From IMG/VR virus record IMGVR_UViG_2645727743_000024: 9,819 bases of DNA; one strand, written 5' to 3'. The stretch is from a virus. Its lineage: Duplodnaviria > Heunggongvirae > Uroviricota > Caudoviricetes. A model generated the notes under the pieces. The model was not told where the DNA came from, searched no databases, and saw only the letters and a list, made by a program, of their open reading frames with translations. Of the stretch, positions 5,872 to 9,819 are shown one piece after another (position 1 is the stretch's first letter; each line of letters begins with the position of its first letter). Both the position numbers and the translations under genes were made by a program.

Positions 5872-5876
5872 AGAAA

Positions 5877-5906
5877 ATGATAATTTTTTCTATAAGATTC
5901 AATCAA
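5877..5906 (-). promoter_or_regulatory. candidate sigma70 promoter for the integrase
   Basis: On the - strand: TTGATT (5906-5901), 18-nt spacer, TATCAT (5882-5877). Predicted start falls near 5871, which would favour the 5814 start codon. AT-rich context makes chance matches likely. Confidence 0.2.
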
Positions 5907-5957
5907 TTAGTAATGGTCGTAGGTGATGGCATTAACACGAGATTAATCGAGTGTTTT

Positions 5958-5976
5958 ACTCCTATTATCGGCACCA
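5958..5976 (+). repeat. attachment-site core: 19-nt copy of the 3' end of tRNA-Thr (thrW type) without a tRNA body
   Basis: ACTCCTATTATCGGCACCA matches my recollection of the thrW 3' end (T-stem 3' half, acceptor 3' strand TATCGGC, discriminator A, CCA). Upstream sequence GTGTTTT does not continue the tRNA, and no GCCGATA 5' acceptor strand is present about 70 nt upstream. It lies between the integrase 5' end and the CP4-like module. Confidence 0.6.
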
Positions 5977-6255
5977 TTAAAATCAAATTGTTACGTAAGA
6001 TCTTATCATTCTCCCACCAAAAAATTATCTTAATGTAACAGCTGGTGTAAGTAAATTCTATCAACGAAGATCAATCTTATCTACTGACCAAAAAGGCCTG
6101 ATAGGGCTTCGCTCACTATACATCCTTGGCTGCAGGTTTAGTTGTACACCACTCCTAAATTTAATGTGTTGGCAATGTGTTCAATAAAGCTCGAACAAAT
6201 TAGCTCATTATGATCGGTTAATACTTCAACTTCTGGTTGCATGATTGTTTGTCCG

Positions 6256-6292
6256 TAAAAAGATAACGCGCCTGCCGGGTAGTAGCAGGCGC
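6256..6292 (-). terminator. candidate rho-independent terminator downstream of the toxin gene
   Basis: Perfect 8-bp stem GCGCCTGC (6268-6275) with GCAGGCGC (6285-6292), 9-nt loop; on the - strand followed by GTTATCTTTTTA, an interrupted T-run. Confidence 0.4.
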
Positions 6293-6357
6293 ATTACGCA
6301 ATAGGTAAACAAGGGAGGAAGTTCAGAAATGTAAATCGGGAAGGTTGTACGCAATGT

Positions 6358-6699
6358 TCATCGTACTACGTTGTTACGGCTTTGCCGCAACAAGCCAGTT
6401 GCCTGCCGCGCTCGCAGAATGTCTGCAGCCCGGAGATAAGGAGATTGTTCCTGCCAGCTAAATCCCTTCCTGTCGATACGAACCAGCTCGTATTTTTCTA
6501 CCAGAAAATTCACGGCATCGGCTAGGGTGATACCGGCATCGATGTGTTCCTTAATCACAGCCTCATTGCAGAATGGCGTGTCGTTTATTGTCAGACCATA
6601 GTGCTGTTCCAGCAGACGTGTCAGTAACATTTGCCAGACAGCCACGGGTGACAGGCAGGGCTTCACCGCCCGCTGAGTTGTTGCAGGTAAAGTTTTCAT
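6358..6699 (-). CDS. cbtA: type IV toxin-antitoxin toxin, CbtA family (YkfI/YpjF/YeeV-like)
   Basis: 113 aa from ATG 6699 ([37 protein letters not shown]...), matching recalled YkfI/YpjF/YeeV sequences. The track ORF (6762) is an N-terminal extension; the internal ATG has GAGAG upstream and is 20 nt past the antitoxin stop. The symbol is the family name; the exact paralogue is unresolved. Confidence 0.85.
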
Positions 6700-6719
6700 G
6701 TTTGCTCTCGTGTAGGTAA

Positions 6720-7037
6720 TTAACGCTGAGTGGGGTAAATGGCGATGTATACGTAGCCGCAACTGCCAAGGGTGTCGGCTTCGCAGGTTAAATCGTTGTG
6801 GTACAGGGTAACGCAGTGGGCATGGTGGGGGCTGAGTTCACCGGTGGTCAGCATCGATTCCATCTGGCGGATAAAGTGCGGGAATGTTTCATCCAGCTTC
6901 CGGCATTCGATGTCACTGAACTTGCCGGTGATGCTGGCCCGGTCAGCCAGATAATGCAGTCGGTTGCCTTCCTGCACCAGACGGGCTCCCAGGCGCAGTG
7001 TAATCTCCCGCTGCAGGCCCCTGGTAGGGTTGCTCAT
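6720..7037 (-). CDS. cbeA: type IV toxin-antitoxin antitoxin, CbeA family (YafW/YfjZ/YeeU-like)
   Basis: 105 aa; [26 protein letters not shown] and [15 protein letters not shown] match the recalled family; GGAGA precedes ATG 7037; immediately upstream of the toxin on the same strand. Confidence 0.85.
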
Positions 7038-7055
7038 TACAGTTCTCCACTATTG

Positions 7056-7277
7056 TCAGTTCAGGGTGATGCTCATCAGGCAGGTATAGGGCCCATTGCG
7101 GTCCTGGCGGCGTTCGGCGTATACCGCGAGGACTCCGGCGATATCCGGAACGTCCCTGCCGGTGTAATGACAGACGCTACCGTGCCACTGGTATTTGCCG
7201 GTGCAGTAGCGAAAGATTCGGGACTCAGGATGCTGGCGGTATATCGTCATTGCCCTGCGTTTACTGATAATTTTCAT
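7056..7277 (-). CDS. DUF987 family protein (YeeT/YkfH-like)
   Basis: 73 aa from ATG 7277 (MKIISKRRAMTIYRQHPESRIFRYCTGKYQWHG...), resembling recalled YeeT. GAGG lies 8 nt upstream. The track start at 7289 is a non-ATG (TTG) start overlapping the RadC-like stop. Confidence 0.7.
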   Translation of the reverse strand: MKIISKRRAMTIYRQHPESRIFRYCTGKYQWHGSVCHYTGRDVPDIAGVLAVYAERRQDRNGPYTCLMSITLN

Positions 7278-7285
7278 GTAATACC

Positions 7286-7762: not shown

Positions 7763-7777
7763 CTGTTGCTCCTTCGG

Positions 7778-8236
7778 TCAGTCGATAATACGCAGAATGG
7801 CGTGAGCCTCTGGATGTTGCATGGCATACTCCCGCAGGCGGTAATAGTGTGCGGTCATCGCGTCACATTCTGTACGGCAGGCATGGTGGCTATACGCAAT
7901 CAGGCAGACAGCAATACCTGCTGCTTCTGCACTCATTTGGGCATCGTTACCGTTCAGGCAGTTAAACAGACGCCATGTCTCATCGTTGTCAGGCTCGGGG
8001 GACATAAATGCGCCGCCATTGCTGAGGGTGTAGAACGACCAGATACCACCGCTGTAGCCCTCACAGAAGCGGTCCATCCAGGCGAAGATATGCGGCTCCA
8101 GGAGTAGCCACTGCGGGATAGCGCCAAAGTACTGTGGCCAGAAATCGATACGCTGTTCATCGGGGACCGGCGTGACGGTCAGTTCAAATTCGGGTTGGTT
8201 AGCGGGTGCGAGGTCGTGCTGCGTCTGTGTTATCAT
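7778..8236 (-). CDS. antirestriction protein, ArdB/KlcA family (YfjX/YafX-like)
   Basis: 152 aa from ATG 8236 (MITQTQHDLAPANQ...). The track ORF extends to 8449 but would overlap the upstream DUF905 gene; the internal ATG has GGAGA upstream and follows a terminator-like hairpin. Confidence 0.8.
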   Translation of the reverse strand: MITQTQHDLAPANQPEFELTVTPVPDEQRIDFWPQYFGAIPQWLLLEPHIFAWMDRFCEGYSGGIWSFYTLSNGGAFMSPEPDNDETWRLFNCLNGNDAQMSAEAAGIAVCLIAYSHHACRTECDAMTAHYYRLREYAMQHPEAHAILRIID

Positions 8237-8251
8237 GGGTATGTCTCCGTC

Positions 8252-8280
8252 AATAAAAACGCCAGCGGCGATGGCTGGCG
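8252..8280 (-). terminator. candidate rho-independent terminator between the DUF905 and antirestriction genes
   Basis: 7-bp stem CGCCAGC (8260-8266) with GCTGGCG (8274-8280), 7-nt loop; on the - strand followed by TTTTTATT (complement of 8252-8259). Confidence 0.45.
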
Positions 8281-8333
8281 TATGGGGATATAAAGTGTGT
8301 TCGGGGAGGTGAATGCGGGTAAATGCTTCGCGA

Positions 8334-8573
8334 TCAGCGGGTAGCCGTGTCTGTACGGATGCCTGAGGTGCGGATATAGCGGTTAAGACCTTCACCGGCA
8401 TCCGGCTCAAAGTTCCATGCCCGCCAGACCATCCGGCCTTCAGTATCACGAACCACCAGACGGAAGTGACTGCCCTGGTCGTCTTCGAGTGTGATATTGC
8501 TGTACGTGGTAGTGACCGCTTGCGCTTGTCTCCGGGTGAAAGGCCCCGGTGGCAGCAACACGGATTGGGTCAT
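8334..8573 (-). CDS. DUF905 family protein (YkfF-like)
   Basis: 79 aa from ATG 8573 ([66 protein letters not shown]...). AGGAG lies 7 nt upstream; the 150-aa track ORF is an N-terminal extension. Confidence 0.7.
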
Positions 8574-8588
8574 TTTCGGGCTCCTGAT

Positions 8589-8623
8589 AAAAGAAAACCC
8601 CGGCAGCCTGCTAGCTGTCGGGG
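8589..8623 (-). terminator. candidate rho-independent terminator downstream of the secreted-protein gene
   Basis: 9-bp stem CCCCGGCAG (8598-8606) with CTGTCGGGG (8615-8623), including one G-T wobble; 8-nt loop; on the - strand followed by TTTTCTTTT, then the DUF905 RBS. Confidence 0.45.
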
Positions 8624-8649
8624 TGGATTTGCTGGGGAAGATGCTACTA

Positions 8650-9117
8650 TCAGTCGTTGCTGCAGTCTCCGGGAGTGGACAGAACTTTCTCAGCGTTCTT
8701 CCGGTCCGCAGTGAAGGTCCCTGCTTTGTGGTCATTGACGTAGACGTCGAACTGCCCGGCCTCAGAGATATTGCTGATGAAGTCAAACCAGGCGTTATCG
8801 CCGTTACGCCAGCCCAGGCTGGACGGAATAATGTACTGCTGGTGATCCATCACTACGGTGATAGTAGTGTCGTCATCGTGCGAACTGACCATCTTGTCAT
8901 CGGCAAGGGTAAGAAAGACTGAATGCTGATAGAAACCATTCTGGTCCGGGTTCCCTGTGCAGTTGATGGTAAACGTCTTTCCGCTGGCTTCGGTCACGCT
9001 GTATTCCGTATTGCCCTGACCGTAACCCTGCTGCCAGAACCCCGGGATAGCAGAGGCATTAAAGCTCGCGAGCAGTACACCCGCCAGCATAAACCGACTT
9101 AGTGAAAGTATTGTCAT
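8650..9117 (-). CDS. secreted protein with N-terminal signal peptide (YkfB/YfjT-like)
   Basis: 155 aa; [23 protein letters not shown] looks like a Sec signal peptide with AxA cleavage site; AGGAGA lies about 6 nt before ATG 9117. Confidence 0.75.
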
Positions 9118-9139
9118 TCTTGTCTCCTTTGTCGTTGTT

Positions 9140-9583
9140 TTATTCCTGATTGTCAGGGTTTGAGGGTATCAGCAGTCGCCCCATCAGTTTGCCGTCATGG
9201 GCGTACTCAAAGTATTTTTCTTTGGTATACGGGTCCGTCACCTCCTGGTATTCCAGTTTGATGTTATCGGCAATACACAGCGCATTCATCAGTGGCTGGA
9301 CGGTTTTTTCCTGCATATCCACGAGGTAGTAGTAACTGCCATCCTCGCAGCCATCGGGCGACTGGCGGGTACGTAAAACCTGCAAGGTGGGACCGGATAA
9401 GTAGTCAACCTGTGACCATTCTTCGCTGACATCATCCTGGTGGCTGACCACATCACTGAAACGCGGTGGGGTGAGGTCCTTAAATTTACTGATGGCCTTC
9501 AGGTCATCACTTCTGTCATCGCATGCGATGAGAAACAGAGTGGTGGCAACCAGCGCCAGCAGAGGCAGTGTTTTACGTTTCAT
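9140..9583 (-). CDS. lipoprotein (YafY/YfjS-like), predicted inner-membrane retained
   Basis: 147 aa; signal peptide plus lipobox LIAC followed by Asp at +2 (Lol avoidance signal). Its ATG (9581-9583) overlaps the upstream gene's TAA stop (TAATG). Confidence 0.8.
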   Translation of the reverse strand: MKRKTLPLLALVATTLFLIACDDRSDDLKAISKFKDLTPPRFSDVVSHQDDVSEEWSQVDYLSGPTLQVLRTRQSPDGCEDGSYYYLVDMQEKTVQPLMNALCIADNIKLEYQEVTDPYTKEKYFEYAHDGKLMGRLLIPSNPDNQE

Positions 9584-9819
9584 TATTTTTTTCCTGAAAT
9601 CAGACGAACCACTTTGGCAAAGACATAAATGCCCACGAAAATACCCACCGGCACGCCGACGAACGGTGTCAGCGCGACACTGGCAGCACCGGCTGCGCCA
9701 CCTCCCGTCAGCAGTGCGGCAACAGTGGCAAGGGTCAGGGCCGCGAGACTGTCGGACACCCCGGTTTTGTTCAGAATGATGACGATGACAACAATGGCGA
9801 TAATGGCAATAACGGGCAT
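9583..9819 (-). CDS. small hydrophobic membrane protein; its ATG coincides with the window edge, so it may be N-terminally truncated
   Basis: 78 aa with two hydrophobic, Gly/Ala-rich predicted transmembrane segments; stop overlaps the start of the lipoprotein gene, suggesting translational coupling. Confidence 0.5.
   Translation of the reverse strand: MPVIAIIAIVVIVIILNKTGVSDSLAALTLATVAALLTGGGAAGAASVALTPFVGVPVGIFVGIYVFAKVVRLISGKK

Follow-up and report, generated by a model that had tools for sequence, protein, structure and literature searches.

A thrW fragment at the seam between a phage-like element and a CP4-6-type island

The virus record IMGVR_UViG_2645727743_000024 (9,819 nucleotides (nt); hereafter the window, to which all positions refer unless another locus is named) corresponds to bases 1–9819 of contig JHRM01000022.1 in assembly GCA_001265465.1. 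Very probably it contains a junction inside an array of integrative elements that have accumulated at the transfer RNA (tRNA) gene for threonine, thrW, downstream of proA, where an island of the CP4-6 type arrived first and the phage-like element to its left arrived second. The open reading frame (ORF) listing and the base composition divide the window into two blocks, one AT-rich (1–5871) and one consisting of minus-strand genes (6358–9819), and a search with the 3' end of Escherichia coli K-12 thrW, ACTCCTATTATCGGCACCA, revealed a single exact copy in the window, at 5958–5976 on the plus strand, while the chance expectation for such a 19-nt match was 0 in 200 shuffles. Successive insertions at the same tRNA-Thr gene had been proposed earlier from the letters of the window alone (the original prediction), and the proposal is supported by this thrW-derived repeat at the seam as well as by the independent occurrence of both segments in other genomes.

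The thrW fragment and the element boundary

The fragment corresponds to positions 58–76 of thrW and comprises the end of the T-loop, the 3' strands of the T stem and the acceptor stem, and the terminal ACCA. To the right of it the sequence is identical to that following intact thrW in K-12 and to the left the departure from thrW is immediate ('...atcgagtgtttt'); in every context seen, the left element terminates on the right with '...atcgagtgtttt' followed by the 19 nt. The element boundary is thus 5976/5977. Bases 5872–5957 belong to the left element, since this stretch is joined to it wherever it was found, and the original prediction, which let the right segment begin at 5872, was correct for the CP4-6 side but included this part of the left element by mistake. 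The orientation of the fragment is that of thrW itself and of the other thrW fragment in NZ_AP021891.1, the complete genome closest to the source, whose locus is referred to as L001.

When analysing the attachment (att) arm beside the fragment, an imperfect inverted repeat was identified (5855–5877 and 5886–5908; arms of 23 nt, 83% complementary, 8-nt spacer), which extends across the start codon of the integrase (5871) and shares bases with a promoter-like minus-strand site (5906–5877). Judging by its sequence, this repeat is a candidate operator or integrase-binding site.

The right segment had been described as reproducing the tRNA-proximal gene order of CP4-6 with all genes transcribed toward the tRNA side, and alignment with K-12 MG1655 agrees with this in full. 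Window positions 5958–9811 are colinear with the thrW 3' end and the CP4-6 left end over 3854 nt, with 11 substitutions and no indels (99.7% identity), and share with K-12 the non-coding sequence after thrW as well as the same genes in the same order and on the same strand (ykfI, yafW, ykfH, ykfG, yafX, ykfF, ykfB and yafY). All nine genes between 6358 and 9819 lie on the minus strand and are therefore read toward the thrW-derived repeat. As had also been stated, the segment carries no integrase of its own here, none being found among the nine genes with Pfam, and in K-12 intF lies at the opposite end of the island at a distance of ~34 kb and adjoins a second thrW fragment. Unlike in K-12, the segment in the window is preceded not by an intact tRNA gene but by the 19-nt fragment and a foreign integrase. 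A paralogous CP4-44 or CP4-57 module was considered as the identity of the right segment and rejected in view of the 99.7% identity to CP4-6, which includes the non-coding sequence adjacent to thrW; within the 40-kb K-12 thrW/CP4-6 locus (L003) paralogous matches were found only near yagB (70–84%), the CP4-44 and CP4-57 sequences not being part of that comparison.

In K-12 the direct repeat of CP4-6 itself could be located at L003 2899–2958 and 37207–37266, which fits the annotated extent of the island (262898–297205). Each copy consists of 49 nt of thrW (positions 28–76, from the anticodon stem to the CCA end) and 11 nt downstream (TTAAAATCAAA), after which the sequences diverge; TTAAAATCAAA is common to the CP4-6 left end and to the chromosomal backbone past the far end of the island.

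Contig JHRM01000022.1 begins with exactly the window sequence, which an independent Logan assembly (ERR2442224) also contains without a difference, and four complete-genome records, from two strains, show the same junction; it is no assembly artefact. In L001 the array reads proB, proA, intact thrW, a further island (island A), the left element and the CP4-6-type segment. Island A comprises 10.8 kb with traJ, trbJ and trbL genes and a 357-amino acid (aa) integrase and has a 49-nt thrW fragment at its end, and the left element (12.5 kb) ends in its own integrase and the 19-nt fragment. At L001 13383–13494 (NZ_AP021891.1 3574453–3574564) RefSeq lists a 112-nt 'tRNA-Ser', which consists of the 49-nt thrW fragment and upstream sequence and in which ARAGORN found no tRNA.

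The neighbour of the CP4-6 segment has an integrase of its own and a different composition, as originally predicted: the guanine-plus-cytosine (GC) content is 40.6% in the left element (GC at third codon positions, GC3, 0.25–0.42) as compared to 54.5% in the CP4-6 genes (GC3 0.54–0.71). The GC shift that had been expected near 5900–6000 is real but lies elsewhere, the maximum-likelihood change-point falling after 6266 with a plateau at 6250–6400. It falls to the right of the true seam because the CP4-6 side opens with 380 nt (5977–6357) that are non-coding and, with 38.6% GC, as AT-rich as the left element. A boundary placed by a compositional change-point can hence be several hundred bases off, while the displaced tRNA fragment shows it to the base.

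Occurrence in other genomes and order of arrival

Among 5426 complete E. coli genomes the integrase end of the left element was found in 447 and the left end of CP4-6 (the stretch 5977–6357) in 445, while both ends are joined as in the window in 4. Intact thrW directly precedes CP4-6 in 368 genomes, which leaves ~77 with something else between thrW and CP4-6, and the left element lies before the yagP/pao backbone in 278. At the loci inspected, the left element with its 19 nt is followed by CP4-6 in the window, in L001 and at one other locus, by the yagP/pao backbone at ten, by a vat-type autotransporter island at two, and by a P4-like element and a lambdoid prophage at one each. The CP4-6 left end is in turn preceded by intact thrW (K-12 and two others), by the 19-nt fragment (the window, L001 and one other), or by thrW fragments of 49 nt (two loci) or 46 nt (three loci) that derive from different elements. 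A 357-aa integrase is found beside the fragment at both loci of the 49-nt kind, and gtr genes beside it at one of the 46-nt kind; the 46-nt fragment adjoins a gtr-carrying, serotype-converting type of prophage. The end sequences of both elements are constant across these contexts, so the members occur separately with the same termini. Sequences of the 49-nt thrW class number 7587 in 5017 genomes, a single genome having at most four.

It was also considered whether plasmid matches to the CP4-6 left end represent the excised, circular island, and this was rejected for the one plasmid inspected, p30EVA2-1, where the match is 224 nt only and flanked by IS1. On this conjugative-type plasmid of 69.8 kb, the 224-nt piece (NZ_CP138420.1 46915–47138) contains the thrW 3' fragment and non-coding sequence of the CP4-6 left end, adjoins a SIR2-family gene and has IS1 copies on both sides; it seems to be a scrap of the thrW region moved by IS1.

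The most probable history begins with a CP4-6-type island, which would have entered thrW by way of positions 28–76 plus 11 nt and rebuilt an intact thrW beside its ykfI end. The left element, of ~12.5 kb, would then have integrated into the rebuilt gene with only the last 19 nt as attachment identity and by means of an unrelated, DUF6538-type integrase, thereby setting its integrase, its att arm and the displaced 19-nt fragment (5958–5976) against the CP4-6 left end. The arrival of the left element as the second one is suggested by the nesting of its 19-nt repeat inside the 49+11-nt repeat of CP4-6 and by the rarity of the joint junction (4 genomes vs 368), and it is to this extent that the original prediction, in naming the left neighbour the newer element, appears to be right. 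Crossover takes place, as a general rule, near the 5' end of the tRNA identity block, so that CP4-6 would need a complete thrW and the left element any copy with its 19 nt, from which we infer that CP4-6 came first. After such a history the left element would now be located between the presumed crossover point of IntF in thrW and the body of CP4-6. It could then excise alone and restore a thrW|CP4-6 junction of the K-12 type, while CP4-6 could leave only as a composite with the left element, provided that its own integrase and far repeat persist. The expected attP of the left element would be '...atcgagtgtttt' + ACTCCTATTATCGGCACCA + 't[ct]aagaaaatcaata...', and if the CP4-6 island is complete, intF and a 49-nt thrW fragment followed by TTAAAATCAAAGAGTTACCCC should be found ~34 kb to the right.

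Several points weigh against this history. Intact thrW and the left end of the left element lie outside the window, the contig starting at window base 1, and the full array is visible only in relatives. The CP4-6-type island of L001 has lost its far end through a deletion at an IS1 and may be an immobile remnant there, and the source contig (43.9 kb) was covered over its first 11.6 kb. The order of arrival depends on the general crossover rule as applied to these integrases by analogy. Homologous recombination could, moreover, have brought in the complete array from elsewhere, its assembly having taken place in another lineage, and the divergence between the window and L001 is so uneven that it implies later recombination within the array.

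Such an import, in which a donor already carrying the array would have passed on all or part of it when its proA-thrW region was transferred by transduction or conjugation, is a possibility to be taken seriously, although we consider it unlikely. It is favoured by the uneven divergence, which indicates recombination tracts: the window differs from L001 by 4–5% in 1–4500 (the structural genes of the left element) and by ~0.4% in 4500–8200, and right of the seam 34 of the 48 differences cluster in 9251–9750, mostly within yafY. No differences from K-12 are found in 9251–9750, which suggests that in L001 a paralogous island module has served as the donor for an allelic replacement or a gene conversion. 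An import would, however, merely move the accretion to another genome, as the att structure still requires two site-specific insertions.

The reverse order, with the left element at thrW first and the CP4-6-type island entering the 19-nt fragment at its right end later, appears very improbable. The authors of TIGER point out that both restored cores of an array may be open to a second element (PMC7192596), and the junction would look identical if the crossover fell within the 19 nt. The CP4-6 repeat starts at the anticodon stem, however, in agreement with the anticodon-centred attP pattern (PMC4383910), and the 19-nt fragment contains no anticodon stem-loop; in addition, intact thrW before CP4-6 is ~90 times commoner than the joint junction (368 vs 4 genomes). 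That the window is instead one composite prophage or island with a single att pair, its GC difference being internal mosaicism, can hardly be true: the two segments are indeed contiguous in the source contig, the Logan assembly and the four complete-genome records, but a thrW fragment lies exactly at the seam, each segment occurs alone with the same end sequence in hundreds of genomes and with varying partners at the seam, and neither is held by any of 50,697 phage records. The two segments do not share one set of att repeats, and a continuous homologue in a single phage genome, which would have spoken for one element, was looked for in these records and not found.

Relation to known arrays and thrW elements

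That thrW is a hotspot and that tandem arrays form at tRNA genes is already published and well documented. Tandem arrays arise since an element, once integrated, has a restored crossover core on either side (PMC7192596), and the first release of Islander listed 125 of them and sorted attP sites into an anticodon-centred and a T-stem-region class (PMC4383910). Like the Islander and TIGER arrays, the history proposed here involves a displaced tRNA fragment of the same orientation between two independently occurring elements, with the integrase of the proximal element beside the fragment. Unlike in those arrays, the two elements in the window use different sub-sites of thrW (19 nt vs 49+11 nt) and would thus be strictly nested rather than form a chain of equivalent sites, and no integrase of the second member, of the CP4-6 type, is present in the window.

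A second comparison concerns ptwF-intF in K-12, a layout that is predicted to go with integrase autoregulation and in which IntF repressed its own promoter ~23-fold (Panis et al. 2010, PMC2951348). In the window, too, the integrase gene starts beside a pseudo-thrW fragment and is read away from it, but the integrase is of a different family (24% identity) and the fragment is 19 nt as compared to 49 nt. As a possible counterpart to the autoregulation of intF, the window integrase shows only the putative regulatory repeat across its start codon.

In E. coli, thrW is among the most frequently targeted tRNA genes and several islands have been named there (PMC7545054), among them PAI-536-thrW, the SHI-O/gtr serotype-conversion elements and thrW-intH in EDL933, as well as a 20-kb island with an autotransporter gene (listed as Tsh) in APEC O1 and UM146 (PMC7545054, PMC2951348). 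These elements share the tRNA gene with the two studied here, and several kinds were found directly beside one or the other of them, but their gene content and integrases differ and none is present in the window. The junction is a clean, base-exact example of a tRNA gene collecting islands. The nesting adds one point beyond the textbook picture, namely that an element whose site is a shorter section nearer the 3' end of the tRNA gene comes to lie within the attachment site of one that uses the anticodon region. From the nesting one can predict the array members that remain able to excise by themselves; this extends published ideas on tandem arrays and represents no new type of system.

The phage-like element and the gene content of the window

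The left element is ~12.5 kb long, with whole copies for example at positions 2813–15428 of L005, a locus where it precedes the yagP/pao backbone, and at L001 13495–25986; the window holds part of it (1–5976). Its genes encode a Phage_cap_E capsid, tape-measure-like and Dit-like proteins, a DUF6538 integrase and a serine resolvase, and no portal or terminase gene was seen in the ~12.5 kb. A megablast search of the 50,697 phage records gave a stretch of 79 nt as the only match, with neither segment held as a continuous homologue. The capsid is at most 24% identical to phage capsids, those being from Pseudomonas phages such as vB_PsyM_KIL1. The integrase, which is 444 aa as the longest ORF and 425 aa (start at 5814) as called by the Prokaryotic Genome Annotation Pipeline, shows 24% identity to K-12 IntF and 28% to its counterpart in the other thrW island of L001, both values applying to the catalytic domain only; the three thrW integrases compared share no more than 24–28% identity in that domain.

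A search of the literature on thrW with CP4-6 tandems, CP-933H and satellites or phage-inducible chromosomal islands at thrW gave no description of this junction or of the left element. The element may be an undescribed kind of phage-dependent satellite that habitually lodges in the attachment sites of resident islands owing to a target site that consists of the last 19 nt of thrW alone, a proposal made tentatively and one we regard as doubtful. If it held, an anticodon-site island such as CP4-6 would be locked in place or would carry the left element along on excision. Being common (447 genomes) and without a relative among sequenced phages, the left element is a more unusual object than the junction itself.

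The features of the window are listed in Table 1. Neither a tRNA gene (ARAGORN) nor an RNA family at gathering thresholds (Rfam) was found in it, and a repeat search within the window revealed no second att copy or other convincing long repeat. The adjacent genes ykfI and yafW, in which the CbtA_toxin and CbeA_antitoxin profiles are covered at full length, are predicted to form a type IV toxin-antitoxin pair. The terminator-like hairpin is located ~60 nt downstream of ykfI, and this putative structure would terminate the minus-strand operon ahead of the seam.

Table 1. Features of the 9,819-nt window
Feature	Position	Strand	Remarks
Phage_cap_E-type capsid	546–1574	+	left element
609-aa protein	1878–3707	+	left element; tape-measure PHROG match
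Dit-like protein	3742–4455	+	left element
Tyrosine integrase	4537–5871	-	left element; Pfam DUF6538 and Phage_integrase; PHROG 1 integrase
Right arm (attR arm) of left element, likely integrase promoter region	5872–5957		29% GC
19-nt pseudo-tRNA thrW fragment ACTCCTATTATCGGCACCA	5958–5976	+	att core at seam; exact match
TTAAAATCAAA (11 nt)	5977–5987	+	downstream part of the 60-nt direct repeat of CP4-6
Non-coding left end of CP4-6-type island	5977–6357		38.6% GC; equals K-12 sequence directly after thrW
Stretch homologous to K-12 pseudogene ykfN	6180–6242		inside non-coding CP4-6 left end
Intrinsic-terminator-like hairpin and T-run	6263–6297	-	14-pair stem, 7 GC pairs; consensus match
ykfI, CbtA-family type IV toxin	6358–6699	-	Pfam CbtA_toxin E = 2e-68; position as K-12 b0245
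yafW, CbeA-family antitoxin	6720–7037	-	Pfam CbeA_antitoxin E = 2e-49
ykfH homologue	7056–7277	-	Pfam DUF987 E = 4e-40
ykfG homologue, RadC-like JAB-domain protein	7286–7762	-	Pfam RadC E = 6e-47
yafX homologue, antirestriction family	7778–8236	-	Pfam Antirestrict E = 2e-39
ykfF homologue	8334–8573	-	Pfam DUF905 E = 4e-43
ykfB homologue	8650–9117	-	precomputed Pfam YfjT match; colinear with K-12 b0250
yafY homologue, YfjS/YafY-family lipoprotein	9140–9583	-	Pfam YfjS_YafY E = 9e-65
Intact ypjK-like gene, 78 aa	9583–9819	-	annotated ypjK in L001

At the right edge of the window the ypjK-like gene is intact, unlike in K-12, where a 557-nt deletion and the pseudogenes ykfL and ykfK are found. The 557 nt absent from K-12 span window position 9812 to position 10368 of the source contig (L009), and ykfL and ykfK correspond here to the intact ypjK-like gene (78 aa) and a yfjR-like gene with a WYL domain (233 aa); the module copy is therefore more complete here than in the K-12 reference.

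In the part of the left element outside the window, ~2.1 kb (L005 4678–6819) contain no ORF longer than ~67 aa and gave no Rfam match. Several different sets of short direct repeats are present in this stretch, for example at 5153–5251, 5327–5392, 5398–5437, 5447–5482 and 5512–5601, and by its repeat pattern it looks like an iteron-type origin or a regulatory region.

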